DNA from: Mogibacterium sp.
GTDB taxonomy: Bacteria; Bacillota; Clostridia; Peptostreptococcales; Anaerovoracaceae
NCBI GenBank assembly: GCA_017432075.1
Contig: JAFRJV010000134.1
Coordinates: forward strand, 13,173-77,172
Direction: 5' to 3'
Length of the DNA stretch: 64,000 nt
The notes below the pieces were generated by a model, which did no database searches, was not told the origin of the DNA, and saw only the letters and a program-made list of their open reading frames with translations. Of the stretch, positions 13,947 to 59,521 are shown one piece after another. Each line of letters begins with the position of its first letter. Position 1 is the first letter of the stretch. The position numbers and the translations under genes were made by a program.

Positions 13947-14077
13947 TTTTTGATAAAAGGGAGTCTTTAAAATGCAGCGGCCGGAGACTCCGCTGCGTAT
14001 AGCCGCGGCGAGGCGCGAGCCGTGCTCCGGACGATGGATTTTAAAGGCACATGTTATAAGTATTAAGGAGGACTAAG

Positions 14078-14758: not shown

Positions 14759-14776
14759 ACCGAAAGGACAGGTGAC

Positions 14777-16207: not shown

Positions 16208-16249
16208 AGAGACAGGCAGTGCAGGAGCAGACAGAACAGAAGGTGTTCA

Positions 16250-17311: not shown

Positions 17312-17394
17312 AATATATTTTTCTCTGCTACTGTATTATAATAGTTTCAGAGAAACAGCGGCGTTGCCGTAACTAACTTTTCGAGGGATTAGAC

Positions 17395-18724: not shown

Positions 18725-18787
18725 TTACACAGGCGGCCGGGACGAATATGTTTCCGGCGACAGCCTGCGCCATTAGGAGAATATGGA

Positions 18788-19972: not shown

Positions 19973-20006
19973 AACTGCAAAGAGTGAAATGGAAGGAGCG
20001 TCCGGG

Positions 20007-21272: not shown

Positions 21273-21284
21273 AAGGAGCGAATA

Positions 21285-28390: not shown

Positions 28391-28525
28391 TTATGTAAAC
28401 GGTCAGCATGTGATTCTGCACTTTTGTCATAATGGTACTCATCTGGTATTGTTAACAGTTGTTGCAGCGTGATAAGATTGATAGGTAATCAATATTTTCC
28501 TTACCGTAGGAGGAGGAGACAGTAT

Positions 28526-29383
28526 ATGTATAAGGTAGTAAGAAGAAAAGCTCTCAGACCTACAGTCACACAGCTGGAGATCGAGGCGCCGCTGGTAGCG
28601 CGCAAGGCGAAACCGGGCCAGTTCATCATCCTGCGCGTCAATGAAGAGGGCGAGAGGATCCCTCTGACAGTAGCGGGAGTGAACCCTGAAGAGGGAACAG
28701 TAAAGATCATCTTCCAGGTAGTGGGAGCAACGACAGAGCTCCTGAACCACGTACCTGAAGGCGGATATCTTCAGGACTTCGTAGGACCTCTCGGTAATGC
28801 GACAGAGACCGAAGGAATAAAGAAGGTGTGCATCGTAGGCGGAGGCGTAGGCTGCGCGATTGCGATGCCTGTAGCACAGGAGTTCCACAGGATAGGCGCG
28901 AATGTAACGAGTATCATCGGATTCAGAAGTGAAGATCTCGTTATCCTCGAGGAAGAATTCACCGAGTGCTCAGACACTCTGTATGTGATGACAGATGACG
29001 GCAGCTACGGCAGACACGGCAACGTAACAGTCCCTCTGGATGAGATGCTGGCGGCAGGCGAGAAGTTCGACATGATCATCACGATCGGACCGCTGATCAT
29101 GATGAAGTTCGTGACGCTGACAGCTAAGAAATACGACGCGCCGATCACGGTCTCGATGAGCCCGATCATGATCGACGGAACAGGCATGTGCGGCGGCTGC
29201 AGACTGACAGTCCACACAGAAGAGGGCGACAAGATGAAGTTCGCATGCGTTGACGGCCCTGACTTCAACGGATATGAGGTGGACTTCGACGAGGCGATCT
29301 CGAGAGGCCGCATGTATTTCGACTATGAGAGACATGCACACGAAGAAACATGCAACCTGTTCAAACAGGCAGAGAACGCGTAG
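28526..29383 (+). CDS. NfnA-like / sulfide dehydrogenase beta-like FAD/NAD(P)- and [2Fe-2S]-binding subunit
   Basis: Start at MYKVVRRKAL with an AGGAGGAG RBS. FNR-like body and a C-terminal GTGMCGGCR cluster motif. Confidence 0.75.
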   Translation: MYKVVRRKALRPTVTQLEIEAPLVARKAKPGQFIILRVNEEGERIPLTVAGVNPEEGTVKIIFQVVGATTELLNHVPEGGYLQDFVGPLGNATETEGIKKVCIVGGGVGCAIAMPVAQEFHRIGANVTSIIGFRSEDLVILEEEFTECSDTLYVMTDDGSYGRHGNVTVPLDEMLAAGEKFDMIITIGPLIMMKFVTLTAKKYDAPITVSMSPIMIDGTGMCGGCRLTVHTEEGDKMKFACVDGPDFNGYEVDFDEAISRGRMYFDYERHAHEETCNLFKQAENA

Positions 29384-29399
29384 GAAAGGGGGAAGAAAA

Positions 29400-30812
29400 A
29401 TGGCACTTGATCCTAAGAAACATGAAATGCCGTCACAGGACCCTCAGGTCCGCGCGCATAATTTCAGCGAGGTAGCACTCGGATATACAGAAGAGATAGC
29501 GATCGCAGAGGCGCAGAGATGCCTCAACTGCAAGAACAAGCCATGTGTAGAAGGCTGCCCGGTAAACGTCAACATCCCTGACTTCATCATGAAGGCAAAG
29601 GAAGGCGACTGGGAAGGCGCATACCAGATCATCAACGCGACATCTACGCTTCCTGCAGTTTGCGGAAGAGTATGCCCGCAGGAGACGCAGTGCGAAGCGA
29701 AGTGCACGATGGGCATCAAGTTCGAGCCTGTAGGCATCGGACGACTCGAGAGATTCGCGGCAGACTGGCACAATGCCAATGCAACTGAGAAGGCTGTCGC
29801 ACCTGAATCGAACGGCCACAAGGTAGCCATCGTAGGCTCGGGCCCTGCGGGACTGACCTGCGCGGGCGACCTGGCAAAGAAGGGCTACAAGGTAACAGTA
29901 TACGAGGCACTCCACACGGCAGGCGGAGTACTGGTATACGGCATCCCTGAGTTCAGACTTCCAAAGGCCATCGTGGCAAGAGAAGTAGAAGGCCTGAAAG
30001 ACCTCGACGTAGACATCGAGACGAACGTCATCATCGGAAAGACACTTACAGTAGACGAGCTCTTCGACGAGATGGGATTCGAGGCAGTGTTCATCGGCTC
30101 CGGAGCAGGACTTCCGATGTTCATGAACATCCCGGGCGAATCGCTTAAGGGCGTGTTCTCGGCTAACGAATACCTGACAAGATCGAACCTGATGAAGGCA
30201 TATCTGGATGACCCTAAGACGCCTATAATGAAGGGCGGCAAGGTAGCTGTAGTCGGCGGCGGAAACGTAGCCATGGACGCAGCAAGAACAGCCCTGAGAC
30301 TCGGAGCGGATCACGTATACATCGTATACAGAAGATCGATGGAAGAGCTCCCTGCAAGGAAAGAGGAAGTCGAGCATGCTATCGAGGAAGGTATCGACTT
30401 CAGGCTGCTGAACAATCCTGTTGAGATCCTCGGATACAATGATCCTGATGATCCACGCGATCCTAAGAACGGATTCGTAAAGGGCATCAGATGCATCAAG
30501 ATGGAGCTCGGAGAGCCTGACGCATCCGGCAGAAGGAGACCTATCCCTGTAGAGGGCAGCGAATTCGAACTTGATGTTGACGCAGTCATCATGGCACTCG
30601 GAACCAGGCCGAACCCGCTGATCAAGAACACGACCAAGGGTCTCGAGGTCAACCGCAAGGGCGGCTTCGTGGTCGATGAAGACGGACTGACCAGCCGTGA
30701 GGCAGTATATGCCGGCGGCGACGCAGTCACAGGAGCTGCTACAGTCATATCTGCTATGGGCGCAGGCAAGCTCGCTGCGGCTTCCATAGACAAATACCTG
30801 AGCAGCAAGTAA
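29400..30812 (+). CDS. NfnB-like / glutamate synthase small-chain-like (GltD family) Fe-S flavoprotein
   Basis: Start at MALDPKKH. CLNCKNKPC...GCPV ferredoxin-like motifs, plus VAIVGSGPAGLTCA and VAVVGGGNVAMDAA dinucleotide folds. Confidence 0.85.
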   Translation: MALDPKKHEMPSQDPQVRAHNFSEVALGYTEEIAIAEAQRCLNCKNKPCVEGCPVNVNIPDFIMKAKEGDWEGAYQIINATSTLPAVCGRVCPQETQCEAKCTMGIKFEPVGIGRLERFAADWHNANATEKAVAPESNGHKVAIVGSGPAGLTCAGDLAKKGYKVTVYEALHTAGGVLVYGIPEFRLPKAIVAREVEGLKDLDVDIETNVIIGKTLTVDELFDEMGFEAVFIGSGAGLPMFMNIPGESLKGVFSANEYLTRSNLMKAYLDDPKTPIMKGGKVAVVGGGNVAMDAARTALRLGADHVYIVYRRSMEELPARKEEVEHAIEEGIDFRLLNNPVEILGYNDPDDPRDPKNGFVKGIRCIKMELGEPDASGRRRPIPVEGSEFELDVDAVIMALGTRPNPLIKNTTKGLEVNRKGGFVVDEDGLTSREAVYAGGDAVTGAATVISAMGAGKLAAASIDKYLSSK

Positions 30813-36723: not shown

Positions 36724-37401
36724 ATGGAAGAAGTAAGAATTATCGATCTAAAGGAAAGCATCCTGGCCGATAACGACGCGGATGCAGATAAGCTGCGCGA
36801 GGAACTGGCAGCGGAAAAGACTGTTTACATCAATGTTATGAGCTCACCGGGATCCGGAAAGACATCCACCATCTTAAGACTGGTGGAGCAGCTCAGGCTG
36901 CTCTGCAAGGTGGGAGTGCTTGAGGCAGATATCGACGGTGATGTGGACACAAAGACGATGCTTGAAGCAGGTATCCCTTCGGTGCAGCTGCACACAGGCG
37001 GAATGTGTCACCTTGATGCAGACATGAGCCGTCAGGCTCTCCGCGAGATCAACTCAAAGGATCTCGACGTTGTCATTCTTGAGAATGTAGGCAATCTGGT
37101 ATGTCCTGCAGAGTTCGACACAGGAGCACAGATCAATCTCGTGATCCTGTCTGTACCTGAAGGCGACGACAAGCCGCTCAAGTATCCTCTGATGTTCACA
37201 AAGGCGGACGTCGTAGTCGTCAACAAGATCGACGCGATGGAAGCATTCGATTTCAGCCCTGAGAAATTCAAGCAGAATGTTGCTGCGTGCTCACCGGATG
37301 CTCCGGTATTCATGGTGTCGGCAGCTACAGGCGAGGGCATAATAGCACTTTCCGAGTGGGTCGGAGAGCGCGCTAAAGAGATCCTGGAATTCGTAGATTA
37401 A
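36724..37401 (+). CDS. hypB: HypB-like metallochaperone GTPase, paralog 1 (CH...C metal motif)
   Basis: 225 aa with P-loop SSPGSGKTS, GGMCHLDA, ENVGNLVCPAEFD and VVNKIDA. Confidence 0.8.
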   Translation: MEEVRIIDLKESILADNDADADKLREELAAEKTVYINVMSSPGSGKTSTILRLVEQLRLLCKVGVLEADIDGDVDTKTMLEAGIPSVQLHTGGMCHLDADMSRQALREINSKDLDVVILENVGNLVCPAEFDTGAQINLVILSVPEGDDKPLKYPLMFTKADVVVVNKIDAMEAFDFSPEKFKQNVAACSPDAPVFMVSAATGEGIIALSEWVGERAKEILEFVD

Positions 37402-37414
37402 TGAGGAAACAGAT

Positions 37415-38092
37415 ATGTCAGAAAACAATGTAAGAGTAATAGATGTAAATGTAGGTATTTTCGAGGAAAATGACCGCATCGCTGCTGACGTAAGAGCGCA
37501 GAACAAGGCGAACGGCACATTCCTTGTGAACGTGATGGCTTCACCTGGAGCAGGTAAAACAACAACGCTCCTGCGCACAATAGAAGAGATCGGCAGTGAG
37601 TACGCGATCGGAGTCATGGAAGCCGACATCGAGGCTACCGTTGATGCCGATAAGATGGCGGAAGCCGGCGTACGCTCGATGCAGATCCACACAGGCGGTG
37701 AGTGCTGCATGGACGCTGCCATGACACAGGCTGCGATCAACGAATTCGATACCAAGGATCTCGATGTTGTGTTCCTTGAGAACGTTGGCAACCTTGTCTG
37801 CACTGCAGAGCAGGATACCGGTGCAAACATCAATATCGAGATACTGTCAATACCTGAAGGTGATGACAAGCCGCTGAAGTACCCTCTCATGTTCACAGTT
37901 ACGCAGGCCGTTCTTGTAAACAAGACAGACACACGCAAGTTCTTCGCGTTCGATGACGAAGCGTTCGTAGAGAGAGTACACGCGCTGAATCCGCTGTCAG
38001 AAGTATTCTTCGTATCGGCAAAGACCGGCGAAGGCTTCGACGCATGGATCAGCTGGCTGAAGAGACAGATCGAACTGGCTAAAGCATTTTAA
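37415..38092 (+). CDS. hypB: HypB-like metallochaperone GTPase, paralog 2 (CC...C variant motif)
   Basis: 225 aa with P-loop ASPGAGKTT, GGECCMDA, ENVGNLVCTAEQD and LVNKTDT. About 40-50% identical to paralog 1 by eye. Confidence 0.8.
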   Translation: MSENNVRVIDVNVGIFEENDRIAADVRAQNKANGTFLVNVMASPGAGKTTTLLRTIEEIGSEYAIGVMEADIEATVDADKMAEAGVRSMQIHTGGECCMDAAMTQAAINEFDTKDLDVVFLENVGNLVCTAEQDTGANINIEILSIPEGDDKPLKYPLMFTVTQAVLVNKTDTRKFFAFDDEAFVERVHALNPLSEVFFVSAKTGEGFDAWISWLKRQIELAKAF

Positions 38093-41317: not shown

Positions 41318-41563
41318 ATGGAAACCAGAGTCGCCGTGATAAGCATTATCGTCACGCAGTCCGACAAGGTGGAAATGCTGAACGATCTTCTCCATGAGTA
41401 TTCCGGATTCATCATCGGACGCATGGGGATCCCGTACAAAGAGAAGGGAATAAGCATTATCAGCATAGCCATTGATGCACCGATGGATAAGATCAACTCA
41501 CTCACCGGAGCACTCGGACGCCTTGACGGTATAAATGCCAAGGTGACCTACGCCAAAGTCTGA
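41318..41563 (+). CDS. TM1266-family small ACT/NikR-C-like protein ('iron-only hydrogenase system regulator' family)
   Basis: Start at METRVAVISIIV. The signature HEYSGFIIGRMGIPYKEKGISIISIAIDAP is present. 81 aa. Confidence 0.65.
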   Translation: METRVAVISIIVTQSDKVEMLNDLLHEYSGFIIGRMGIPYKEKGISIISIAIDAPMDKINSLTGALGRLDGINAKVTYAKV

Positions 41564-41757
41564 AACATCCTTCTGAAGCTGAAATCCCATGAAAAGGGTT
41601 TGAGGCCGAAGCAAGATGCGAAGGTGATCATTTGTAAGAGCGCTTTTTTGCGTACTGAGATTTGATTTATGCAGCCTTGCTTCACACGGAGCGGGGCTGT
41701 TTTGATTGGAGCAGGGTCACCGTAAAAGAAAATTAAAAAAGGAAGTAAAGCAAGCAC

Positions 41758-42780
41758 ATGAGCCTCAGAAGAGACGGAAGGCTTGGCGCCGCATGGATCG
41801 TAGTATTAATAGTGCTGCCGTTTGCCGCAGCCATCATCGCCCTTGGGATCGGACGTATGTCGATCGCCCCGGGCGAAGTTCTTGATGTGCTCCGCGCCGC
41901 ATTAGCCGGAAAGCATGCATCGAGTGAGCTTATAGAAAAGACAGTGATGCAGCTGAGACTGCCGCGCATCATACTCGCGGCACTGGTCGGAGCCGGGCTC
42001 TCTGTGTCAGGATGCGCGTTCCAAAGCCTCTTTGCGAACCCTCTCGCTACGCCGGACACTCTCGGTGTGGCAAGCGGCGCGGCTTTCGGCGCCGCCCTCG
42101 GGATACTGCTGGGATTCAACCTGATAGGCATACAGCTGCTGGGCCTCTTCATGGGCGGCGCAGCAGTTGCCCTCACATGGCTCGCGGGCTCGGGCAGGGA
42201 CAGAGGCGGACTGAGCTACATAGTGCTGTCAGGCATAATGATAGGCTCTCTCTTCTCAGCTCTGATATCTTTCATAAAGTTTGTAGCCGATGCTGAATCA
42301 CAGCTGCCTGCCATAACATACTGGCTTATGGGAGGTCTGGACAAGGCCAACTACCGCACGCTTTCGCTCGGTGCGCCGGTCATAATTGCCGGAGTGGTGC
42401 TGTTCATGCTCATCAGATGGCGCATGAACCTGCTGCCTCTTTCCGACGATGAAGCAAAGGCGTCGGGAGTCAACATAAGGCTGCTGAGAGGCGTCACCGT
42501 AGTGGCTGCGACAGCCATCACAGCATCCTGCGTATCGATGTGCGGACAGGTAGGCTGGGTGGGACTCCTCATCCCGCATATGTGCCGCATGCTGTTCGGC
42601 AACAACCACCTTTCGATAGTTCCGGCTTCCGTAAGCTTCGGAGCCGTGTTCATGATAATAGTAGATACCATGGCGCGCAGCATATCCGCGGCTGAGATCC
42701 CGGTCTCGATACTGACTGCCATGATAGGCGCGCCGTTCTTTATAGCTCTGATGAGAAGAAGCGGAGGCTGGCGCATATGA
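41758..42780 (+). CDS. FecCD-family ABC permease (iron-chelate / B12 / heme type)
   Basis: 340 aa with RLPRIILAALVGAGLSVSGCAFQSLFANPLATPDTLGV, typical of BtuC/FecCD. Confidence 0.9.
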   Translation: MSLRRDGRLGAAWIVVLIVLPFAAAIIALGIGRMSIAPGEVLDVLRAALAGKHASSELIEKTVMQLRLPRIILAALVGAGLSVSGCAFQSLFANPLATPDTLGVASGAAFGAALGILLGFNLIGIQLLGLFMGGAAVALTWLAGSGRDRGGLSYIVLSGIMIGSLFSALISFIKFVADAESQLPAITYWLMGGLDKANYRTLSLGAPVIIAGVVLFMLIRWRMNLLPLSDDEAKASGVNIRLLRGVTVVAATAITASCVSMCGQVGWVGLLIPHMCRMLFGNNHLSIVPASVSFGAVFMIIVDTMARSISAAEIPVSILTAMIGAPFFIALMRRSGGWRI

Positions 42781-43835
42781 GTTTACTCAGGATAGAAAAC
42801 GGCAGCTTCGCGTATAAGAGCGGACCGCAGATACTGAAAGACATAAATATAGATGTAGAGCCGGGCGAGATACTCGCGGTGCTCGGGCCAAACGGAGCGG
42901 GCAAGACGACCCTGCTGAGATGCATGATGGACATGCTACACTGGCAGAGAGGCCGCAGCCTGCTGGACGGCGAAGACATACGAAGCATACCGGCGTCCAG
43001 GCTCTGGCGCAGGATGGCATACGTGCCGCAGGCAAGGTCTGCAGCGGTTTCATACACGGCGTTCCAGACCGTACTGCTCGGAAGGAGCAGCCGCATAGGC
43101 GCTTTCTCAGCTCCGTCCGCTGAGGACATGAAGATAGCTGAGCAGGTGATGGAGAGACTGGGCATATCGCATCTCGCAGATAAACCGTGCTACGCGATAA
43201 GCGGCGGAGAGCTGCAGATGGTGCTCATAGCTCGCGCAATGGCGGCAGAACCGGAGATACTGGTCCTCGACGAGCCGGAATCCAACCTGGATTTCAAGAA
43301 CCAGCTCATAGTTCTCGACGCGATGACGGCGCTTGCTGCAGAGGGAGTCGCCTGTATATTCAACACGCATTATCCGGCTCACGCACTTCAGCGCGCAGGC
43401 AAGGCGCTGATGCTTTCGAAGGACGGCAAAAGCATCTTCGGAGATACCACGGCTGTAGTGACTGAAGAGAACATCCGCCACGCATTCGGGGTCAAGGCGC
43501 TCATAGGTGAGGTCGAGACACCGCAAAGCATAATGAAGAACGTCGTTGCTGTCGGCATAACGGGCGAAAGCGGTCCGGACACTGAGGCTGACGGCGACAG
43601 GACGATACTTGCTTCCGTGACGGTGATCATGAGGAGCAACGAGCGTGCGAATCTGATCAACAACGCATTCAGGGAATACAATCATCTGCTGATCGGCAGG
43701 ATGGGACTGCCTCACAGGAGGTCAGATAAGTACATCATAAGCGTGATGCTCGAGGGACCGGTTTCGGACATCGATGCGCTGTCTCACAGACTGAGCCTGA
43801 TACCGGACATCAGCGTGAAAACCACATATGAATAG
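42777..43835 (+). CDS. FepC/BtuD-type ABC ATPase with a C-terminal TM1266-like domain fusion
   Basis: Walker A GPNGAGKTT, signature ISGGELQ and Walker B ILVLDEP. The C-terminal 78 aa (nt 43599-43832) align without gaps to the 41318-41563 product (LIGRMGLP). ATGA overlap with the permease gene. Confidence 0.9.
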   Translation: MSLLRIENGSFAYKSGPQILKDINIDVEPGEILAVLGPNGAGKTTLLRCMMDMLHWQRGRSLLDGEDIRSIPASRLWRRMAYVPQARSAAVSYTAFQTVLLGRSSRIGAFSAPSAEDMKIAEQVMERLGISHLADKPCYAISGGELQMVLIARAMAAEPEILVLDEPESNLDFKNQLIVLDAMTALAAEGVACIFNTHYPAHALQRAGKALMLSKDGKSIFGDTTAVVTEENIRHAFGVKALIGEVETPQSIMKNVVAVGITGESGPDTEADGDRTILASVTVIMRSNERANLINNAFREYNHLLIGRMGLPHRRSDKYIISVMLEGPVSDIDALSHRLSLIPDISVKTTYE

Positions 43836-43877
43836 AACCGTGCGGACAGTTCCGGCGGATATGGGAAAGGTAATAAA

Positions 43878-44636
43878 ATGATAAAAATAGCAGTTTACGG
43901 AAAAGGCGGTATCGGCAAATCGACAACGGTATCGAACGTGTCGGCAGCACTCGCGGACATGGGCTACAAGGTCATGCAGATCGGATGCGATCCAAAGGCC
44001 GATTCAACATCCAGCCTCCATGGGCAAGGAGACATGACGACGGTTCTCGATCTCGTAAGAGAGTGCAAGAATGCATTTGAGCTTTCGGATATGGTGAAGG
44101 AAGGCTACGGCGGAGTCATATGCGTCGAAGCAGGCGGACCTACTCCGGGACTCGGATGTGCAGGGCGCGGCATTATCGCGGCGCTCGATAAGCTGAAGGA
44201 GAAGGGCGCCTACGAAACTTTCAAACCTGACGTCGTTATTTACGATGTACTTGGCGATGTAGTCTGCGGAGGCTTCTCTATGCCGATGCGCGGCGGCTAT
44301 GCCGACAAGGTGTTCGTTATCACTTCCGGCGAGAACATGGCCATACATGCCGCCGCCAATATCGCGGTAGCCCTCGACGGTTTCAAGGACAGGGGATATG
44401 CGACACTGGGCGGTATCATCCTCAACCGCAGGAACGTACGCGACGAGGATGCCAAGGTGGCCGAGCTCGCTTCAGACATCAACTCTCAAGTGATAGGAGA
44501 GCTGAGCCGCAGCGAAACAGTTACGGATGCAGAGGACCTCGGAAAGACAGTCATCGAGGCATTCCCTGACAGCGAGATGGCCGGCGAGTACCGCAAACTC
44601 GCAAAAACGCTGCTTGATATATGCAATGATAAATAA
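43878..44636 (+). CDS. NifH/BchL/CfbC-family ATP-dependent reductase (Fe-protein-like)
   Basis: 252 aa with [11 protein letters not shown]. Cluster Cys residues lie in GLGCAGRGI and GDVVCGGF. Confidence 0.9.
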
Positions 44637-44641
44637 AAAAG

Positions 44642-46012
44642 ATGCTTAAGAAAGTAAACGAAAAACAGAATATAAGGCTGAGCGCGGATGAGATCCCTCA
44701 CGTGAGGATCGCGGACGCGAACTTCCCGGCGCCGTTCAGATCGGGTCTGGAGTATTCTTCTCCGGCCCGCGGCACGTGGAACATCGTCCACACCGGGATG
44801 CTCATCCCGGAGGCACACGAAATATTCGTGTGCGCCGCGGGCTGCCTGCGCGGTGTCGTTCTGACTGCCGCTGAGATGGGTACGACGGACAGGTTCTCCA
44901 CGGTCGCCGTAAGAGAGAACAACCTGCTCGACGGAGACATGGAAGATCTCGTTATAGAAGGTGTTACGGACATAATCAACAAGCTCCCGAAGCGTCCGCC
45001 TGCAGTGCTCGTGTATACGAGCTGCGTACACCACTTTACGGGAGTCGACCTCGACATGATTTACGCGACTCTCAGGAGCCGCTTCCCGGACATCGATTTC
45101 ACGGACTGCTACATGAATCCTATCATGCGCAAGAGCGGTCTGACTCCGGACCAGCTTATGAGGTCGCGCCTTTACATGCTCCTGCATGAGCGTGAGATCG
45201 ACCCTCAGGCTGTTGCCATAATCGGCAACGATCTTCCGACAGATGAGGACAGCGATCTGATGAAGATCCTGAAGGGCGCAGGTCTGAAGATCCATGAGAT
45301 CACATCGTGCAAAAACTACGAAGAATACCAGCAGATGGCTGAGAGCCGTGTCTATGTATCGTACAACCCGGATGCAGCTCCGGGAGGTGACATGCTCTCG
45401 GAAAGGCTGGGCGGGACCCACTACGCGCTGAAGTTCAGCTTCGATTACGATGAGATCGACGAGACCTTCGCGGGGCTCGCTGAAGTTCTCGGGACCGCAC
45501 CTCGCAGCAGCGAGGAGATCTCAGCTTTGAGAGCTGAGTGCGAAAAGGAACTTGAAGAGACAAAAAAGCTTATCGGGGAAACGCCGGTGAGCATAGACTA
45601 TACATACTGCCCGAGACCTCTGGGGCTGGCGAAGCTGCTGCTCGATCACGGCTTCAATGTCACAAAGGTATATGCGGATGGCATACCGGGCGGTGACAAA
45701 GCGGCTTTCGAAAGCCTGCAGAAAGAGCACCCGGATCTCATGATCTATCCGACGGTGCACCCGGGAATGAGGTTTGCGCGCACCGCTAACGTTGAAGAGC
45801 AGGGCGAGGTCAAAGTCCTGGCGATCGGACAGAAGGCGGCTGCTTTCGAGGAAACTGATCATTTCATCAACGTAGTTGAAGGCGGCGGAATGAATGGCTA
45901 TGAGGCAGTCATGAGAACGTGCAGGCTTATGCGAGAGGCCTTCCTTGAGAAGAAGGAGATGCGTGAATTGGTACAGGTGAAGGGCCTGGGCTGCGAGGTG
46001 TGCATACGATGA
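44642..46012 (+). CDS. Nitrogenase component-1-type oxidoreductase, NifD/NifE/BchN-like subunit
   Basis: 456 aa. It lies 5 nt after the NifH-like gene. Cys residues occur in FVCAAGC and YTSCVHHFTGVDLD (S-C-x5-G-x-D pattern). Confidence 0.75.
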   Translation: MLKKVNEKQNIRLSADEIPHVRIADANFPAPFRSGLEYSSPARGTWNIVHTGMLIPEAHEIFVCAAGCLRGVVLTAAEMGTTDRFSTVAVRENNLLDGDMEDLVIEGVTDIINKLPKRPPAVLVYTSCVHHFTGVDLDMIYATLRSRFPDIDFTDCYMNPIMRKSGLTPDQLMRSRLYMLLHEREIDPQAVAIIGNDLPTDEDSDLMKILKGAGLKIHEITSCKNYEEYQQMAESRVYVSYNPDAAPGGDMLSERLGGTHYALKFSFDYDEIDETFAGLAEVLGTAPRSSEEISALRAECEKELEETKKLIGETPVSIDYTYCPRPLGLAKLLLDHGFNVTKVYADGIPGGDKAAFESLQKEHPDLMIYPTVHPGMRFARTANVEEQGEVKVLAIGQKAAAFEETDHFINVVEGGGMNGYEAVMRTCRLMREAFLEKKEMRELVQVKGLGCEVCIR

Positions 46013-47298
46013 AACAGACAGCAAGAATAATATCGACATATTCTGCGGACGTGATGGGCGTATGCTCGGCACTCTTTGAGCTGGGCGGCATGACGGTGAT
46101 GCACGACGCATCGGGATGCAACTCCACCTACACGACGCACGACGAGCCGCGCTGGTACGACATGGACAGCATGGTCTACATATCCGGCATCAGCGAGATG
46201 GAAGCAATAATGGGCGATGATGAGAAGCTCATAAGCGACATCGTCGACGCGGCGGCGGTCCTGAAGCCGGCATTCATAGCGATCGCAGGCACACCTATCC
46301 CGACCATGACAGGCTTCGACTTCGAAGCGGTCGCAGCTGTGATAGAGCAGAGGTCGGGCATACCGAGTTTCGGCTTCCCTACAACGGGAATGAACACATA
46401 CATACACGGGGCATCGATGGCATTCGCAGGTATCGCGGAACGCTTCGTTGATGATCCTGAAGACAGCAAAAGCGGCGGAAGCAATACATTGAATATGTCC
46501 GCGCGCAAACTTGCATCGGTCCTGGACAGCTGCTGCATGCGGCCGAACGGGATCAAGGTCAACGTTCTCGGGCTTACACCGCTCGACTTCTCAGTCAACG
46601 GAACGGATGATTCCATCGTTCAGTGGCTGGAAAGAGAAGGCTTTGAGGTCGTATCGAAGTGGGCGATGGGCAGCAGCCTCGATGAGATAAGACGCTCGGC
46701 CGAAGCAGACGTCAATCTCGTAGTTTCGGCAGCGGGCTATGGTGCAGCCAAAGTGCTTTATGAAAGATTCGGAATGCCGTACGCAATAGGATTCCCTGCA
46801 GGAAATGAATTGCCGGGGCTGCTGGCAGACCGGATAATACTAAGCGTGAAGCAATTCAAAGAGCAGGGCGGAGCAGATTCCTTTGAGGCAGCAGAGATCA
46901 GCGTGGACTCTGGCGTGTTCCTCGACGGAAGCGAAGGCAAAGGCGGAAGCACCTATGAAAAGGGATTTGCAGCCGTTATAGGCGAGGGCATCACATCGCT
47001 TTCTCTCGCAGGCACGATCGAACTCGAGTGCGGGATCCCTGCAAAGGTCCTCTGCGCAACTGAGTGTCCTGAAGACATACTGAGAGAGTGCGACAGAATG
47101 ACTCCCGATGAGGACGACATAATCCCTGAGCTTGAGGGAGCGGCATTCGTCATAGCGGACCCTCTCTACAAACCAATCGTTCCGGAAAGCGCAAAATTCA
47201 TATCGCTTCCGAGCGAGGCTTTCTCGGGCCGCATCTACAGAGACGAGATCCCTGATCTGGTCGAAGACATAAATGAGCTATTAATTAAAATCAAATAA
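46009..47298 (+). CDS. Nitrogenase component-1-type oxidoreductase, NifK/NifN/BchB-like subunit
   Basis: About 430 aa, with ATGA overlap to the D-like gene (an alternative GTG start is at 46000). VMHDASGCNS resembles the HxxxGC of NifK/N. Confidence 0.7.
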   Translation: MKQTARIISTYSADVMGVCSALFELGGMTVMHDASGCNSTYTTHDEPRWYDMDSMVYISGISEMEAIMGDDEKLISDIVDAAAVLKPAFIAIAGTPIPTMTGFDFEAVAAVIEQRSGIPSFGFPTTGMNTYIHGASMAFAGIAERFVDDPEDSKSGGSNTLNMSARKLASVLDSCCMRPNGIKVNVLGLTPLDFSVNGTDDSIVQWLEREGFEVVSKWAMGSSLDEIRRSAEADVNLVVSAAGYGAAKVLYERFGMPYAIGFPAGNELPGLLADRIILSVKQFKEQGGADSFEAAEISVDSGVFLDGSEGKGGSTYEKGFAAVIGEGITSLSLAGTIELECGIPAKVLCATECPEDILRECDRMTPDEDDIIPELEGAAFVIADPLYKPIVPESAKFISLPSEAFSGRIYRDEIPDLVEDINELLIKIK

Positions 47299-47318
47299 AT
47301 CAAAGGAGGTTTCTGATT

Positions 47319-48485
47319 ATGAAGAGTTTTCTGAGTAAGAAGAACAAAACGTTAAAACTGTTTGTGCTTGTCATGGTCTTCGCAATGAGCATGATGGCGT
47401 TCGCGTCCTGCGGCGGAGGCGGCGGAGAAGAAGCTGCCGAGCCTGCTGAGACAGCCGGAACCATCACGATTACAGACCACGCTGACAGACAGGTCGAAGT
47501 CCCGACAGACATCCAGAGGATAGCGGTATGCGATATCTATCCGCTCCCGAGTGTGCTCGCTGTATTCTTCGACTCTGCTGACAAGATCGTAGGCATGCCG
47601 ATGCCGTCGATGACAGCTGCACAGAACGGACTTCTGGGCCAGCTCTATCCTGAGATCCTCAATGCAGAGACAGGCTACATCGAAGACGTGAATGTCAACA
47701 TGGAAGAGCTCGCGAAGCTTGAGCCGGATGTAGTATTCTACAGCGCATCGAGCGCTGAGCTCGGTGACCAGCTTGCCAACGCAGGATTCGCTGCAGTAGC
47801 TATCTCTGTCAACAAGTGGGACTACAACTGTATCGAGACGCTCAACAACTGGATCGCTCTTTTGAGCCAGATGTTCCCTGACAGTGACAAGGCTGCGATC
47901 GTAGAGGAGAAGTCCAACGCGATGTACGACATGGTGCAGGAGAGGGTCAAGAACATCCCTGACGAAGAGAGAGCCAACGCATTCTTCCTCTTCCAGTACA
48001 GCGACACAACACTCCTGACTTCAGGACAGCAGTTCTTCGGTCAGTGGTGGGCAGATGCCATCGGAGCAAAGAACGTAGCGAAGGAGCTTTCGACAGACAA
48101 CTCCGTTGCGGTCAACATGGAGCAGGTATACGGATGGAATCCTGATCTGATCTTCATGACAAACTTCAACGCATACTATCCGGACGATCTGTACAACAAC
48201 ACCGTAGAGGGATATGACTGGAGCGCCGTAAAGGCAGTGCAGGACAAGAGAGTCTTCAAGATGCCGCTCGGCATGTACAGAAGCTACACTCCTGGAGTCG
48301 ACTGCCCGGTCACACTGCTGTGGATGGCAAAGGCTGCATATCCTGAAAAGTTCGAGGACGTTGACGTAATTGCAGAGGCAAAAGCTTACTACAAGGAAGT
48401 CTTCAGCATCGACCTGACCGATGAGCAGGCACAGTCCATATTCGAGCCTGTACAGAGTGCGGGAGAAGGATTTGCATATCAGTAG
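47319..48485 (+). CDS. ABC substrate-binding lipoprotein, periplasmic-binding-protein type (FecB/BtuF/HmuT-like)
   Basis: Lipobox MMAFASC followed by a GGGGGEE linker. RIAVCDIYPLPSVL and PDLIFMTNF are typical of class III SBPs. Confidence 0.85.
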   Translation: MKSFLSKKNKTLKLFVLVMVFAMSMMAFASCGGGGGEEAAEPAETAGTITITDHADRQVEVPTDIQRIAVCDIYPLPSVLAVFFDSADKIVGMPMPSMTAAQNGLLGQLYPEILNAETGYIEDVNVNMEELAKLEPDVVFYSASSAELGDQLANAGFAAVAISVNKWDYNCIETLNNWIALLSQMFPDSDKAAIVEEKSNAMYDMVQERVKNIPDEERANAFFLFQYSDTTLLTSGQQFFGQWWADAIGAKNVAKELSTDNSVAVNMEQVYGWNPDLIFMTNFNAYYPDDLYNNTVEGYDWSAVKAVQDKRVFKMPLGMYRSYTPGVDCPVTLLWMAKAAYPEKFEDVDVIAEAKAYYKEVFSIDLTDEQAQSIFEPVQSAGEGFAYQ

Positions 48486-48525: not shown

Positions 48526-48530
48526 TTGAT

Positions 48531-48562
48531 CAACCTCTGAAAAGGGGTTGATTATTTTTTTT
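48531..48562 (+). terminator. Terminator-like hairpin between the SBP gene and uvrB
   Basis: CAACCTC-tgaaaa-GGGGTTG, then ATTA and a T8 run. Confidence 0.4.
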
Positions 48563-55901: not shown

Positions 55902-56792
55902 ATGGGATATCAGGCAGTTTTTAAGAGATACGAAATCAAATATCTGGTCACGGATGAGCAGAAGGCCCGCATCCTGAAAGCGATGGAGCCTTATATGGAA
56001 ATGGACAGGTTCGGCAGGTCGACTGTCAGGAATATCTATTTCGATACGGACGACTTCGTACTCGCCAGACATTCCATCGCCAAGCCTGACTTCAAGGAAA
56101 AGCTCCGCATAAGGAGCTATTCGAAAGCAGATGCAGGCAGCACGGTCTTCGTGGAGCTGAAGCGCAAATACGACGGAGTCGTGTATAAAAGAAGGATCGG
56201 CCTTCCGGAAACGGACGCCATGAAATGGATGGCGGGTTCAAGGGATCCGGTACTCATGCGCGAGGCAGAAGCGGAGTCTTCGCAGGTAAAAAGAGAGATC
56301 GAGTACTTCATGAACCTTTACCGCGGAGTTAAGCCTGTACTCTATCTGAGCTATGACCGGGAGGCATACCGGATGAAGAAGGATGCTTCCGCACTCGACG
56401 GCGGCTCCGGTTTCAGGATCACGTTCGACTGCAATATATTATGCAGGGAAGGCGACCTGTCACTGAGATCAGATCCATATGGGACAGCAATTCTTGAAAA
56501 AGGTATGTTCCTGATGGAACTCAAGTGTCCCGGAGCAATACCGATGTGGATGACTAAGATCCTGTCGGAAGAGCACCTTTACAAAACATCGTTTTCAAAG
56601 TACGGCACGGCCTACTGCAGCTTCATGGACAAAGCGCCGCATGAGCGCGCGCACGAGATAGCAGCGGCCGGCTACGAAAACTACGCGGCGGCAAGAGAAG
56701 CCTGCCGCACAAACAGCAGTGCGCGCAGAACCGGCCGTGCCGGACGCCGCCTGCAGGAAAGGCCCACCTCTTTTGGCAGGGCATCCGCTTAA
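55902..56792 (+). CDS. VTC-domain (polyphosphate polymerase-like, CYTH/TTM fold) protein
   Basis: FKRYEIKYLV...RNIYFDT...EKLRIRSY...VELKRKY, typical of bacterial VTC-domain proteins. The Ala/Arg-rich C-terminal ~55 aa look atypical. Confidence 0.75.
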   Translation: MGYQAVFKRYEIKYLVTDEQKARILKAMEPYMEMDRFGRSTVRNIYFDTDDFVLARHSIAKPDFKEKLRIRSYSKADAGSTVFVELKRKYDGVVYKRRIGLPETDAMKWMAGSRDPVLMREAEAESSQVKREIEYFMNLYRGVKPVLYLSYDREAYRMKKDASALDGGSGFRITFDCNILCREGDLSLRSDPYGTAILEKGMFLMELKCPGAIPMWMTKILSEEHLYKTSFSKYGTAYCSFMDKAPHERAHEIAAAGYENYAAAREACRTNSSARRTGRAGRRLQERPTSFGRASA

Positions 56793-56864
56793 TCAGCTGC
56801 AACATATTTTTTCTTCATATAAACTTCATAACCTTCATAACAACCTATAACTACAAAATCCAAG

Positions 56865-56901
56865 GAGAACGGCCGCGCCATCCGCGCGGCCGTTCTCTTT
56901 T
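56865..56901 (+). terminator. Rho-independent terminator after the VTC gene
   Basis: 13-bp GC-rich stem GAGAACGGCCGCG / CGCGGCCGTTCTC followed by TTTT. Confidence 0.8.
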
Positions 56902-56927
56902 CATTAATAAAAAAAATCAGGCCGGCG

Positions 56928-56960
56928 CTTTAGTTTCATTTAAGTTTGGGCCGTTATTAT
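56928..56960 (+). promoter_or_regulatory. Direct-repeat (OmpR-type) box plus -10, module 2, upstream of the DUF4956 gene
   Basis: CTTTAGTTTcaTTTAAGTTT, then 7 nt, then TATTAT. It matches module 1 at 28 of 33 positions with identical geometry. Confidence 0.55.
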
Positions 56961-57027
56961 GCGGGTGACAACAGGAGAAAAGCATATTTAGGAATACTAA
57001 GAAGAAGGTTAACAGGAGGTGACAGCA

Positions 57028-57720
57028 ATGTCTGATTTACTGACAAGCATCTATGATTCAACAACAGCAACAACTATAAGCGCAGCTCAGTTCGGAGCAT
57101 CGTTCGGAGTATCACTGCTCCTGGGCATACTCATTGCTGCGGCTTACATGTACAACACACGTTACACCAAAAGCTTTGTAGTAACGCTCGCGATGCTTCC
57201 GGCGATCGTATGTGTGATCATCGCGATGGTAAACGGAAGCATAGGCGCCGGGATCGCGGTAGCGGGAACATTCAGCCTGGTAAGGTTCCGTTCGGTCCCG
57301 GGTACCGCCAAGGAGATCTGCGCGATATTCCTGGCAATGGCGACGGGCCTCGCTACAGGCATGGGCTATCTGGGACTCGCAACGGCATTCACGGCAGTAC
57401 TTGCACTGGCGATACTGCTCTCCGGGAAATTCGATTTCGGAACCAAAAGAAATGCGAACAAATATAAGAGCTTCAGGATAGTCATTCCGGAGGATCTCGA
57501 TTACACAGGTGTCTTCGATGACCTGTTCGAGGAGTACACAAGCGCATGCGAGCTGGTAAATGTAAGGACGACAAACATGGGAAGCATGTTCAGACTGACA
57601 TACGATGTCACACTGAAGGATCCTGACAAAGAAAAGGAACTGATCGATAAACTGCGCTGCCGCAACGGCAATCTCGAGATAAATGTTTCGAGACAGGCGA
57701 CAGCAGCAACTGAATTATAA
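57028..57720 (+). CDS. DUF4956-like membrane protein (usual partner of bacterial VTC-domain proteins)
   Basis: Start at MSDLLTSIYD, with AGGAGG 8 nt upstream. It has an N-terminal TM bundle and a soluble C-terminal domain. Confidence 0.7.
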   Translation: MSDLLTSIYDSTTATTISAAQFGASFGVSLLLGILIAAAYMYNTRYTKSFVVTLAMLPAIVCVIIAMVNGSIGAGIAVAGTFSLVRFRSVPGTAKEICAIFLAMATGLATGMGYLGLATAFTAVLALAILLSGKFDFGTKRNANKYKSFRIVIPEDLDYTGVFDDLFEEYTSACELVNVRTTNMGSMFRLTYDVTLKDPDKEKELIDKLRCRNGNLEINVSRQATAATEL

Positions 57721-57772
57721 GGCGACGATCCACAGACTGCATGCAGCAGTCTTCAATCAGGAGGATAAAGAT

Positions 57773-59521
57773 ATGAACAGGAATCAGGAGTATAAAAACA
57801 AAATATATAAAGACGCCGGCGTGGAGCGCGGTGTCACCGCAAAGGCAATGACGGTGATCCTGGCGCTGATACTCGCTCTGGTGCTGACCCTCACATCGTG
57901 CGGCAGTACCGCAGAGGCGGGATCGACCGGCGGGATCACATCACAAACATCAACAGAAACATCGTACAACGCAGCAAGCAAGTCGGAGATGTTCACCGAT
58001 AGAGATCTCTCGGAGGACTACGATGAAAGCGAGGCTGAGACCATAACCCTCAGCGGAAGCAGCATACAGACTTCAGCCAAATCAGGCGTGAGCGTAGACG
58101 GAAGCACCGTCACCATCTCAGCTGAAGGAGTATACATCGTGAGCGGAACTCTCACAGACGGTCAGATCATAGTCGACGCGGACGATTCGGCAAAGGTTCA
58201 GATCGTTCTCAAAGGCGCTTCGGTCACGAGCAGCGATTCAGCAGCGATATACGTCAAGTCGGCTGACAAGGTCTTCGTGACTACGGCAGCAGGTACGGAA
58301 AACACTCTGGCGAACGGCGGCAGCTTCGTGGCAGACGGAGATACGAATGTCGACGGTGCGGTATTCGCAAAGGATGACATCACTTTCAACGGAAGCGGCA
58401 GCCTCACGATCGACTCACCGGCAGGTCACGGCGTAGTCGGCAAGGACGATGTAAAGATCGCGAGCGGAACAGTAACCATCAACGCGGCGAATCACGGCAT
58501 ACAGGCCAACGACAGCGTGAGAGTCGCAGAGGCGGCAGTGACAGTCGATGCACGGAACAAGGACGGCATCCACGTTTCGGATGATGCCGATGAAGAGGAA
58601 GGAACAGAATCTGACAGCTTCTTCTACATGTCGGACGGCAGTCTCACCATCACTGCAGGAGACGACGGCATCCATGCGGATGCAGAGGCTCTGATCGAAG
58701 GCGGTGCCATTGACGTTACCAAGTCGTATGAGGGTATCGAGGCCCTGTCGATAAAGGTGTCCGGCGGTGACATCAAGGCAGTAGCAAGTGACGACGGATT
58801 TAACGCAGCAGGCGGCAACGCTTCGAGCGGAAGCCAGACATTCGGAAGCGATGACTGGGGCGGCGGAGCCCGCGGAGGCTTCAGCGATGGAGGCACCAAC
58901 GGCAGCATCGAGATCAGCGGAGGCAACATCTATGTACAGGCAGGCGGAGACGGTATCGACTCGAACGGATCGGTGGCAATAAGCGGCGGTTACACAGTCG
59001 TTTGCGGGCCGACTCAGGGAGATACATCCGTGATCGACTTCAACGGCGAAGGCACTATCACAGGCGGTACGTTCATAGGAACGGGCGGAGCAGGAATGGC
59101 CGAGAGCTTCACGAGCGCTTCCCAGGGACTTATCGCGGTAAGCGTAGGCAATCAGTCAGCAGGCAGCACTGTGGCTCTTAAGGATGAAGCAGGCAATGTG
59201 CTTGCCGAAGTCACACCTGAACTCGACTACGCGGTAGTCTACGTGAGCACTCAGGACATGGCTCAGGGTGAGACATATACTCTGACGGCCGGAACCTACA
59301 GCGAAAGCATCACTCTCTCTGACATCATGTACAGCACACTGAACGGCGGCATGGGCGGAAGTTTCGGCGGAGGCGGTCCCCGAGGGGGAATGAACGGAGA
59401 GATGAACAATGATATGAACGGCGGCATGCACGGTGGAATGCATCACGGCGGACCCGGTATGGGTGAAGCACCTGACGGGATCACCGGAGCAACTGAGCTG
59501 AACGGCGATACAGAGGCTTAA
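57773..59521 (+). CDS. Cthe_2159-like carbohydrate-binding beta-helix protein (membrane-anchored/secreted) with a Gly/Met/His/Asn-rich tail
   Basis: Start at MNRNQEYK, with a TM/lipobox-like LTLTSCGS. ITLSGSS...GVYIVSGTLTDGQIIVDADDSAKVQIVLKGASVTSSDSAAIYVKSADKVFVT is typical of the family. Confidence 0.7.
   Translation: MNRNQEYKNKIYKDAGVERGVTAKAMTVILALILALVLTLTSCGSTAEAGSTGGITSQTSTETSYNAASKSEMFTDRDLSEDYDESEAETITLSGSSIQTSAKSGVSVDGSTVTISAEGVYIVSGTLTDGQIIVDADDSAKVQIVLKGASVTSSDSAAIYVKSADKVFVTTAAGTENTLANGGSFVADGDTNVDGAVFAKDDITFNGSGSLTIDSPAGHGVVGKDDVKIASGTVTINAANHGIQANDSVRVAEAAVTVDARNKDGIHVSDDADEEEGTESDSFFYMSDGSLTITAGDDGIHADAEALIEGGAIDVTKSYEGIEALSIKVSGGDIKAVASDDGFNAAGGNASSGSQTFGSDDWGGGARGGFSDGGTNGSIEISGGNIYVQAGGDGIDSNGSVAISGGYTVVCGPTQGDTSVIDFNGEGTITGGTFIGTGGAGMAESFTSASQGLIAVSVGNQSAGSTVALKDEAGNVLAEVTPELDYAVVYVSTQDMAQGETYTLTAGTYSESITLSDIMYSTLNGGMGGSFGGGGPRGGMNGEMNNDMNGGMHGGMHHGGPGMGEAPDGITGATELNGDTEA

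Follow-up and report, generated by a model that had tools for sequence, protein, structure and literature searches.

The 64-kb stretch of Mogibacterium sp. DNA analysed here, hereafter the window, carries at 41318-48485 seven intact genes, co-directional on the + strand, in which the genes of a nitrogenase-like (NFL) reductase are interleaved with those of an ATP-binding cassette (ABC) importer. Genes were assigned from Pfam and NCBIfam profile scores, with the NCBIfam equivalog cut-offs as the test of class, and are referred to as T (TM1266-like), P (FecCD permease), A (ABC ATPase), H (NifH-like), D and K (homologues of nitrogenase component 1) and S (substrate-binding protein, SBP), their order being T-P-A-H-D-K-S. 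What emerges is an importer-linked NFL reductase with a shared TM1266-like domain, and the wider context of the family points to hydrogenase-type iron-cofactor assembly.

The operon is headed by T, which codes for 81 amino acids (41318-41563; PF21699, 103 bits; TIGR03959, 108 bits with a cut-off of 61). A gap of 194 nt (41564-41757), holding a terminator-like hairpin with a 13-bp stem and then a T-rich tail (41671-41700, + strand), separates it from P (41758-42780; PF01032, 270 bits), the FecCD/BtuC-type permease of a type II ABC importer. P and A overlap in an ATGA at 42777-42780, and the 352-residue ATPase (42777-43835; PF00005, 110 bits) ends in a TM1266-like domain at residues 279-349 (43611-43823; PF21699, 52 bits). 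After 42 nt comes H, for a NifH-like ATPase and [4Fe-4S] electron donor (43878-44636; PF00142, 291 bits), and 5 nt further on D, with 456 codons (44642-46012; PF00148, 67 bits), which meets K (46009-47298; PF00148, 87 bits) in a second ATGA at 46009-46012. S follows after 20 nt (47319-48485; PF01497, 58 bits) and codes for a lipoprotein SBP of the Peripla_BP_2 type with the lipobox FASC; a closing terminator-like hairpin with a T8 tail lies ahead of uvrB (48527-48554, + strand). The seven co-directional genes and the two ATGA overlaps had been recognised in a preliminary description of this DNA, and all are confirmed. The same description gave K as a component-1 homologue of about the present length, which stands, but began it at GTG 46000; the start is most likely ATG 46009, giving 429 residues, because this ATG forms the ATGA shared with the stop codon of D.

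For comparison we used 80 genome loci whose D proteins are 62-95% identical to that of the window, 48 of them with complete flanks, and a metagenome scan made with a 15-sequence alignment of more distant D proteins, in which neighbours were labelled by BLASTP against a reference set. Together, 48 genome and 31 metagenomic loci make up 79 loci with complete flanks, and neighbourhoods were taken as +/-10 kb. The D protein of the window is identical to one from a metagenome-assembled genome (MAG) of Mogibacterium sp., and the closest loci are ruminant gut MAGs of Anaerovoracaceae. Measured with three relatives, the ratio of nonsynonymous to synonymous substitution rates (dN/dS) is 0.02-0.14 for all seven genes, which indicates strong purifying selection with none of the genes degraded; decay of D and K, a concern raised in the preliminary description, is thereby excluded.

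A T-P spacer of 115-258 nt with a terminator-like hairpin is confined to Anaerovoracaceae-type loci (L001-L038 equivalents), while in Lachnospiraceae and Oscillospiraceae T and P overlap by 1-4 nt. The hairpin in this spacer may be a lineage-specific attenuator. Between 40900 and 48700 no Rfam match was found up to E = 1, and in seven related loci no riboswitch or leader RNA was found to adjoin the clusters. Locus L168 has a cobalamin riboswitch (96 bits) at 21158-21333 (+), about 9 kb downstream of the Blautia-type cluster there and before an unrelated gene, with no association to the NFL genes.

The nitrogenase-like proteins H, D and K

H retains the P-loop GKGGIGKS, the switch regions and both cluster cysteines, C94 and C130, all invariant across 147 homologues; the P-loop and the two [4Fe-4S] cysteines had already been picked out in the preliminary description. 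Its scores lie below the curated cut-offs for nifH (321 bits, cut-off 394), CfbC (310, cut-off 402), BchL (194, cut-off 345) and BchX (164, cut-off 331). The best match of H in the PDB is the Fe protein of the Mar complex (9fmg_D, 253 bits), with A. vinelandii NifH at 240 bits and BchL at 148.

Two further features of the window touch on the biology of NifH-like proteins. At 220-1290 (+), 42 kb from H, lies a gene for an ADP-ribosylglycohydrolase (PF03747, 225 bits), a family that includes DraG, the reactivator of ADP-ribosylated NifH; no DraT was seen in the window. At 28469-30812 (+) there is an NfnAB-like pair, consisting of a DHODB-type Fe-S subunit and a Fer4_20/Pyr_redox_2 subunit, which is a possible source of low-potential electrons in Mogibacterium.

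As single sequences D and K find hardly any match in the PDB, although their PF00148 scores exceed the gathering score of 28.6. Searched as family profiles, D matches NifE (58 bits), VnfD (46), MarD (36) and ChlN (25), and K matches a NifEN fusion (89 bits), C. pasteurianum NifD (84), ChlB (57) and MarD (43). Scores on the curated models are far lower than their cut-offs for nifD and nifK (at most 27 bits, cut-offs above 427) and for the CfbD model TIGR03282 on K (18 bits and E = 8e-4, cut-off 268), and reach at most 28 bits for BchN/BchB. The structure model of D (pLDDT 90.9, pTM 0.91) was compared with solved structures using Foldseek, and NifN, NifE, VnfK, AnfK, NifK and MarD/K match it about equally (TM 0.55-0.65, identity 12-17%, probability 1.0); the top 50 fold matches include no DPOR chain.

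Cysteine conservation was taken over representatives at 50% identity together with 160 loci. In D, C68 and C128 are universal and C64 is present in 83-97%, whereas K has a single universal cysteine, C40 (numbered from GTG 46000), within the near-invariant block HDASGCNSTYxTHDEPRW. A cysteine stands in D at the position of the NifE/NifD Cys154 type, the Cys153/154-type position in K is a proline, and D has no cysteine at the position aligned to the NifE/NifD cofactor cysteine (Cys275, which serves the iron-molybdenum cofactor, FeMo-co, or the L-cluster). This pattern of three cysteines in D and one in K predicts a single inter-subunit [4Fe-4S] cluster and not a P-cluster, and the D-K interface probably holds one such cluster. 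A second four-cysteine site in D (C156, C223, C451, C454) was considered and set aside: it is at least 93% conserved in the near clade, variable across the wider family, and its losses are not joint. Fusions of H with D and of D with K occur naturally among relatives, which suggests that H, D and K act together as one complex.

On sequence criteria, then, H/D/K is a member of the NFL superfamily and not a nitrogenase. Judged by the features tested, namely hidden Markov model cut-offs and searches of the PDB by sequence and by modelled fold, the three proteins lie outside the characterised Nif/Vnf/Anf, CfbCD, DPOR/COR and Mar/Isr systems, which bears out the placement first proposed for them. 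Also as first described, no nifB, nifE, nifN or nifV was found within the 64-kb window. The family is large, with 852 representatives at 50% identity (246 with E < 1e-30) and more than 4000 clusters at 90% identity, and its members come from Clostridia, Veillonellaceae, Desulfovibrionaceae, Sutterellaceae and Lentisphaeria.

The importer and the TM1266-like domains

The importer has the features of type II (BtuCD/FecCD-class) systems and fails all substrate-specific equivalog cut-offs, the permease scoring below every NCBIfam equivalog cut-off for BtuC, FecC/D and FhuB. The lipobox cysteine of the SBP, C31, is conserved in 92%. By sequence, the matches of the SBP in the PDB are 4ovk (153 bits), the MolA protein HI_1472 (74), CeuE/NiuB (47) and BtuF (22), and its identity to any solved SBP is at most 27%. 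Foldseek, run with a model of pLDDT 85, ranks 4ovk, MolA, 4pag, H. pylori CeuE-Ni-His, 4HN9 and YiuA above binders of heme and siderophores; HmuT ranks low among the fold matches and BtuF falls outside the top 50. Among these nearest relatives MolA binds molybdate or tungstate, NiuB binds Ni-(His)2 and YiuA binds iron with nitrilotriacetate or a catecholate fragment. Sequence and modelled fold thus point to a MolA/NiuB/YiuA-like subgroup for S and not to the heme or B12 subgroup, so the broader chelate/corrinoid/heme class to which it was first assigned has to be revised.

4OVK is the structure of a Veillonella SBP. As a candidate member of an NFL locus it was rejected, its 81% relative adjoining a Nik/Opp-like system and ychF and not NFL genes; a 57% relative in F. 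nucleatum does adjoin NFL genes.

T belongs, through the TIGR03959 equivalog, to the hydEFG-associated TM1266 family and was found in 76 of the 79 complete related loci. It consists of an ACT/NikR-C-like domain only, homologous to PDB 2NZC, and has no DNA-binding domain; the TM1266-type regulator of the preliminary description is therefore right as to family, while the protein itself is a bare domain. N22, G34-R-M-G37, P39-Y40 and S49 are invariant in T, H26 is conserved in 96% and K75 in 98%, and there is no cysteine. The C-terminal domain of the ATPase is 30% identical to T. Such a domain is present on 53 of 89 ATPases of related loci, where it has in common with T the invariant GRMG, with the next proline conserved in 98%, and an ATPase-fused T-like domain also occurs in the distant L086 clade, whose D is only ~30% identical. 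The gene had been read as a FepC-type ATPase, which is correct in so far as it encodes an ABC ATPase and overlooks this C-terminal domain. By analogy with other importers that carry a small ligand-binding domain at the end of the ATPase, we propose that the TM1266-like domain may be a ligand sensor acting by trans-inhibition.

Gene neighbourhoods of related loci

The order T-P-A-(hydE)-H-D-K-S-(hydF) recurs among the 80 genome loci in Anaerovoracaceae, Lachnospiraceae and Oscillospiraceae, and an importer is present in 39 of the 48 complete genome loci of Clostridia. Outside this core, R. flavefaciens reads H-D-K-S-P-A, with a D that is ~30% identical, and a Sutterellaceae MAG reads hydE-H-D-K-S-P, its HydE being divergent (284 bits). 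In F. nucleatum (L172, CP084127.1, 1-10856) a gene for a NifH-like protein of 276 aa and a single K-like gene of 551 aa lie between two FecCD-type importers, one of which is 33-44% identical to the importer of the window, and a Nik/Opp2/Cnt-like ABC system is found upstream of the NFL genes; this arrangement, in a pathogen open to genetic work, is a third NFL-importer architecture. The adjacency of importer and reductase, whose conservation the preliminary description had left to be checked, therefore holds across these Clostridia and extends to Ruminococcus, Sutterellaceae and Fusobacterium.

Between A and H, 32 of the 80 genome loci carry a radical-SAM gene that is a canonical hydE (TIGR03956, 531 bits, cut-off 255). 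Across related loci HydE scores 406-536 bits on this model, and HydF scores 533 with a cut-off of 326; the commonest Clostridial architecture is T-P-A-hydE-H-D-K-S-hydF. Of the 79 complete loci, 34 have hydE or hydF no more than 10 kb away, and in 29 of the 31 metagenomic loci hydE, hydF or hyp genes are found within this distance. In the metagenomic scan T-H-D-K has, in nearly every case, either of two partners. Where the partner is an importer, it usually comes with hydE and hydF.

T-H-D-K also occurs with a second partner block, which contains a second NifH-like gene and D2 and K2, fused or separate (set B), together with hypF-hypC-hypD-hypE; hydF, hydE and an aspartate-ammonia-lyase-type gene often come after it. 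Among the 79 complete loci the partner is the importer in 48 and Hyp plus set B in 22, both occur together in none, and nine have neither. Since D2 and K2 are paralogous to D and K (E = 7e-36 and 8e-47), sets A and B form a distinct two-branch NFL clade. Set B and HypFCDE are found together in all 22 of 22 complete Hyp-type loci, and look like a functional unit in its own right. HypC, HypD, HypE and HypF pass their equivalog cut-offs, and hypA and hypB are absent from the Hyp-type blocks. Set B was located at 774-8839 of L168, 12477-19467 of L082, 1583-9694 of L083, 2127-9991 of L169 and 4224-11834 of L171, and in these five loci D2 and K2 are separate or, where fused, ~810-850 aa long, with an invariant CDAGGCTGNxCGFDEPR in the K2 half.

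The pattern takes several forms. A Blautia luti-type contig reads H2-D2-K2-hypFCDE-T-H-D-K, and the cluster to which its D belongs counts 6862 sequences in the protein collection; the order in a Desulfovibrio MAG is hydA-hydB-T-hydE-hydF-H-D-K-H2-DK2-hypF-hypC-hypD-hypE; and loci from Veillonellaceae and Lentisphaeria-like organisms are variations of the Hyp/set-B arrangement. Locus L085 (10001-23057) carries a D-K fusion of 1018 aa, an SRAP-domain protein, a NifH-like gene and a 435-aa D-like gene, and further a 215-aa radical-SAM protein, TraX, a 363-aa component-1 protein, hypE-D-C and hypF. An aspA-type ammonia-lyase gene follows the cluster in L083, L105 and L129, and aspartate ammonia-lyase (aspA) has been tied to maturation of the H-cluster (PMC11736057).

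hydG was found in cis in none of 167 loci, which contain no HydG-like radical-SAM open reading frame, the few other radical-SAM genes being of SPASM or B12 types. No nifB-like radical-SAM gene was found in the window or in the loci, and no tetrapyrrole, bch or chl genes recur as neighbours in the 167 loci. Clustering of 967 otherwise unlabelled flanking open reading frames gave only lineage-specific recurrences (uvrA/B, MFS, ATC hydrolase and HypB). The dominant context of the family is one of hydrogenase-cofactor maturation genes, namely hydE, hydF, the TM1266-like gene, aspA and hypFCDE, and this was overlooked in the preliminary description. Neighbour joining places the window at the tip of the importer-type clade, in a sub-lineage of Mogibacterium from whose operon hydE and hydF have been lost.

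A tandem pair of genes for HypB nickel-insertion GTPases lies 4 kb upstream of the operon (36724-37401 and 37415-38092, +; TIGR00073, 227 and 216 bits, cut-off 121); further hyp genes are absent from its surroundings. As a functional partner of the NFL genes the pair was rejected, being confined to some 12 Mogibacterium-type loci.

In the remainder of the window, a gene at 4254-7454 (-) is a candidate for anti-phage defence; its product, of 1066 aa, has a TIR/ThsB-like domain at the N-terminus and may contain a beta-propeller. Consecutive genes at 55902-59521 (+) code for a VTC-domain protein, a DUF4956 membrane protein and a Cthe_2159-family protein, and look polyphosphate-polymerase-like. 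A long purine-biosynthesis run at 13458-25082 (+), with genes that by eye are purE-, purF-, purM-, purN-, purH- and purD-like and one of 1265 aa that is purL-like, looks like ordinary housekeeping.

Possible functions and comparison with known systems

The most economical reading of the window operon is import followed by ATP-driven low-potential reduction. Such a sequence of events had been suggested at the outset for a tetrapyrrole or corrinoid-like cargo; the coupling to an importer is conserved, the cargo unsupported. We infer, tentatively and with something less than an even chance of being right, that the NFL reductase processes an imported metal species for the assembly of a cofactor of the [FeFe]-hydrogenase type. 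Outside the cell the lipoprotein SBP would bind a metal oxyanion or a small metal complex, with iron as the likeliest metal, being the commonest denominator of the gene contexts; the FecCD/ATPase importer would carry this species in. The TM1266-like domain of the ATPase would sense the cytoplasmic pool of this species, or of its product, and throttle import, while free T would sense or buffer the same pool as a cytoplasmic carrier. The NifH-like dimer would then spend ATP to drive low-potential electrons into a [4Fe-4S] cluster held by three cysteines of D and one of K, and the D2K2 core would reduce or re-ligate the metal species, with the product entering metallocofactor assembly. In most relatives the operon itself also encodes the putative receivers, HydE and HydF, which are maturases of the H-cluster.

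Several observations weigh against this interpretation. Both hydE and hydF are absent from the window operon and from the whole 64 kb, nine of the 48 complete genome loci have neither importer nor hyp genes, and in six of the 80 genome loci T-H-D-K stands by itself. R. flavefaciens and F. nucleatum, the deepest of the relatives with an importer, are without T, hydE and hydF in cis, and the hydrogenase link may therefore be secondary. Iron as the metal is a guess, since Mo/W, Ni and Fe species all occur as ligands among proteins related to the SBP. T has no conserved cysteine and one conserved histidine, which is odd for a metal sensor, and we know of no canonical step of H-cluster assembly that needs such a reductase.

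The strict alternation of the two partner blocks, with the importer in 48 complete loci, Hyp and set B in 22 and both in none of the 79, raises a more specific possibility, to which we give a distinctly smaller share of belief. HypFCDE and set B would make an Fe-CN/CO-type species, which T-H-D-K would process for HydE/HydF, replacing or supplementing HydG; importer-type loci, the window among them, would salvage the species or a close precursor of it from the surrounding community, with the T-like domains as carrier and sensor. hydG is missing in cis from all 167 loci, and T-H-D-K sits beside T, hydE, hydF and aspA in a slot which we take to be that of hydG in canonical operons. The Hyp proteins are canonical equivalogs that nevertheless come without hypA and hypB, D2 and K2 are paralogues of D and K, and the same arrangement is seen again in Blautia, Veillonellaceae, Lentisphaeria-like and Desulfovibrio loci. 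Against this, evidence for such complexes free in gut or rumen fluid is lacking, the mutual exclusivity could stem from lineage or from the +/-10 kb horizon, the negative result for hydG covers the loci in cis only, and importer-linked relatives in Ruminococcus and Fusobacterium have no hyd or hyp genes in cis. Stated in full, the idea would be that T-H-D-K, set B and HypFCDE build an Fe-CO/CN precursor of the [FeFe] site, independently of HydG or alongside it, that importer loci salvage this precursor, or a closely similar metal complex given off by neighbours, and that the TM1266-like domain is its carrier and sensor; in this form we hold it to be slightly less probable again. If true, gut and rumen anaerobes would trade a hydrogenase-cofactor precursor as they do corrinoids.

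About as improbable as salvage in its shorter form is general anaerobic metal acquisition, in which a highly stable chelate of Fe, Ni or another metal would be imported and the NFL proteins would free the metal reductively, co-location with hydE and hydF reflecting iron demand only. The pairing of importer and NFL genes is older and broader than the link to hyd genes; in F. nucleatum the NFL genes lie between two FecCD importers and beside a Nik/Opp2/Cnt-like system for metal chelates; two HypB nickel GTPases are found 4 kb upstream of the operon in the window; and relatives of the SBP bind Ni and Fe complexes. Flavin or [2Fe-2S] reductases normally suffice for such a task, however, and an ATP-driven NifH-type donor would be excessive. 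The alternation with Hyp and set B and the near-obligatory T (76 of 79 loci) would be left unexplained, and no Fur, NikR or riboswitch element was identified.

Less likely still is the reading with which the study of this DNA began: the cargo would be a bulky chelate such as a tetrapyrrole or corrinoid, and after import its ring would undergo reduction of the DPOR, COR or CfbCD kind. Three-plus-one ligands for a single inter-subunit [4Fe-4S] cluster and the lack of NifB do resemble the tetrapyrrole reductases, and H scores nearly as high on CfbC (310) as on nifH (321). Chlorophyll and heme derivatives are plentiful in the guts of herbivores. The SBP, on the other hand, is nearest to MolA, NiuB and YiuA, with HmuT low and BtuF outside the top 50; no DPOR chain is among the top 50 fold matches of D, the profiles favour NifE and NifD, with NifEN/NifDK as close as any tetrapyrrole reductase, and K reaches only E = 8e-4 on the CfbD model. 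No tetrapyrrole genes recur in the 167 loci and no cobalamin riboswitch is present at the locus, so that a tetrapyrrole, corrinoid or heme cargo finds support neither in the kin of the SBP and the profiles of D and K nor in gene context and the riboswitch search.

The presence of paralogous sets A and B, which mirror NifDK and NifEN, suggests a further alternative that we rate slightly lower: D-K would be an end-user enzyme, reducing an imported substrate by means of a cofactor made by HydE, HydF and Hyp proteins, with set B as a NifEN-like scaffold, following the logic of NifB/NifEN/NifDK. A radical-SAM gene lies directly upstream of H in many loci, including that for the divergent HydE (284 bits) of Sutterellaceae, and conservation of the extra cysteines of D (C156, C223, C451, C454) is at least 93% within the near clade; these same cysteines are variable across the wider family and are not lost together, HydE and HydF are canonical equivalogs forming no distinct paralogue class, and the window and many other loci are without hydE and hydF. 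Finally, a cryptic nitrogenase or degraded remnant is rejected despite the name 'nitrogenase' that public records give to D, given that at most four of six P-cluster cysteine positions are kept with no cysteine at the FeMo-co Cys275 position, that nifB, nifE and nifN are absent and all curated Nif cut-offs failed, and that dN/dS is 0.02-0.14.

NFL enzymes have repeatedly yielded unexpected low-potential chemistry, in the formation of chlorophyll and F430, in the release of ethylene and methane from organosulfur compounds, and with isethionate. For the present family gene context is unusually informative and is consistent over five phyla: the NFL proteins are tied to a small protein whose only other known setting is the hydEFG cluster, and are accompanied by an importer or by HypFCDE, the cyanide/carbonyl-iron machinery, and often by HydE/HydF. 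This offers entry points to the route by which iron and diatomic ligands reach hydrogenase sites in strict anaerobes, to the role of TM1266, and to the reason why some organisms have hypCDEF but not hypAB. Human-gut and rumen metagenomes contain the family in great abundance, and in those ecosystems hydrogen turnover governs the balance of fermentation and the output of methane. Among its hosts, Blautia luti, Ruminococcus flavefaciens and Fusobacterium nucleatum are cultured or tractable, and a crystal structure of a related SBP is available (4OVK).

Searches of open-access full text found no paper describing an NFL-importer or NFL-hydrogenase-maturation system of this kind, though an earlier description elsewhere is possible. 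A July 2026 review of NFL proteins makes no connection with hydrogenase maturation and mentions neither Hyp proteins nor the taxa treated here nor a similar chelate-type importer; it gives for Groups IV-D and IV-E, the unassigned clades of North et al. 2020, no context matching the T-H-D-K family, and regards gene context as having so far been of little help for the remaining NFL groups (PMC13474568).

Of the characterised systems, NifEN/NifDK with NifH share the three-domain component-1 fold (TM 0.55-0.65), provide the best profile matches of D and K, and have in common with the family a NifH-type partner with every catalytic motif and the GC-motif cysteines of D and K. Identity is only 12-17%, however, there are three plus one cysteines here as opposed to the six (three per subunit) of the P-cluster, nifB, nifV and nifX are missing, and the genes are encoded with an ABC importer or with hyd/hyp genes. 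CfbCD likewise combines an ATP-dependent NifH-like reductase with a simple [4Fe-4S] component-1 homologue and does so without NifB, but CfbD is one homodimeric subunit where two distinct subunits occur here, H scores below the CfbC cut-off, cfbA, cfbB and cfbE are absent, and the hosts are bacterial gut anaerobes and not methanogens. With DPOR (BchLNB/ChlLNB) and COR (BchXYZ) of Group V the family has in common the logic of a heterotetramer without a complex cofactor, and DPOR has an inter-subunit [4Fe-4S] cluster with three-plus-one ligands, with which D and K are compatible by sequence pattern alone; the fourth ligand is Asp there and Cys here, and neither bch/chl genes nor phototrophic hosts are found here.

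Methylthio-alkane reductase (MarBHDK) and isethionate reductase (IsrBHDK), of Groups IV-C and IV-F, act on substrates other than N2, and the Mar Fe protein is the best solved match of H. MarDK, by contrast, holds clusters of P-type and L-like kind and depends on a homologue of NifB, of which there is none here; D and K match MarD/MarK at only 36-43 bits, and a sulfur-metabolism context is lacking. Isr is co-regulated with ABC importers for its substrate (PMC13474568), whereas here a chelate-type importer lies inside the operon. The Group VI NFL proteins of Elusimicrobia resemble the present ones in their divergent D/K with at most four of six P-cluster cysteines, the absence of NifB and their radical-SAM neighbours. 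Meheust et al. 2020 (doi 10.1101/765248) describe Group VI NifH as the sister group of BchL/BchX, which by that description differs from H, NifH/CfbC/Mar-like by score (nifH 321, CfbC 310, BchL 194), and the neighbours described for Group VI are arrays of B12-binding/HemN-like radical-SAM genes in place of hydE, hydF, hypFCDE, T and the importer.

Among importers, MolBC-A (HI1470-72), H. pylori NiuBDE/CeuE, Yersinia YiuABC and BtuCD-F have the same composition of FecCD permease, ABC ATPase and Peripla_BP_2 SBP. None of them has a TM1266-like C-terminal domain on the ATPase, and the present importer differs also in being interleaved with NFL genes. MetNI and ModBC-type systems, known for trans-inhibition, similarly have an importer ATPase whose C-terminus bears a small ligand-binding domain of the ferredoxin-like/ACT-like kind, but it is a NIL or TOBE domain in a type I importer there and a TM1266-like domain in a type II importer here, for which such regulation is only proposed. 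The hydEFG/TM1266 maturation clusters differ in that hydG is never found in cis here, NFL genes with an importer or hypFCDE being present instead, and in the window only T is present; with these clusters the family nevertheless shares a T protein that meets TIGR03959 and, in relatives, canonical hydE, hydF and aspA in the same operon.

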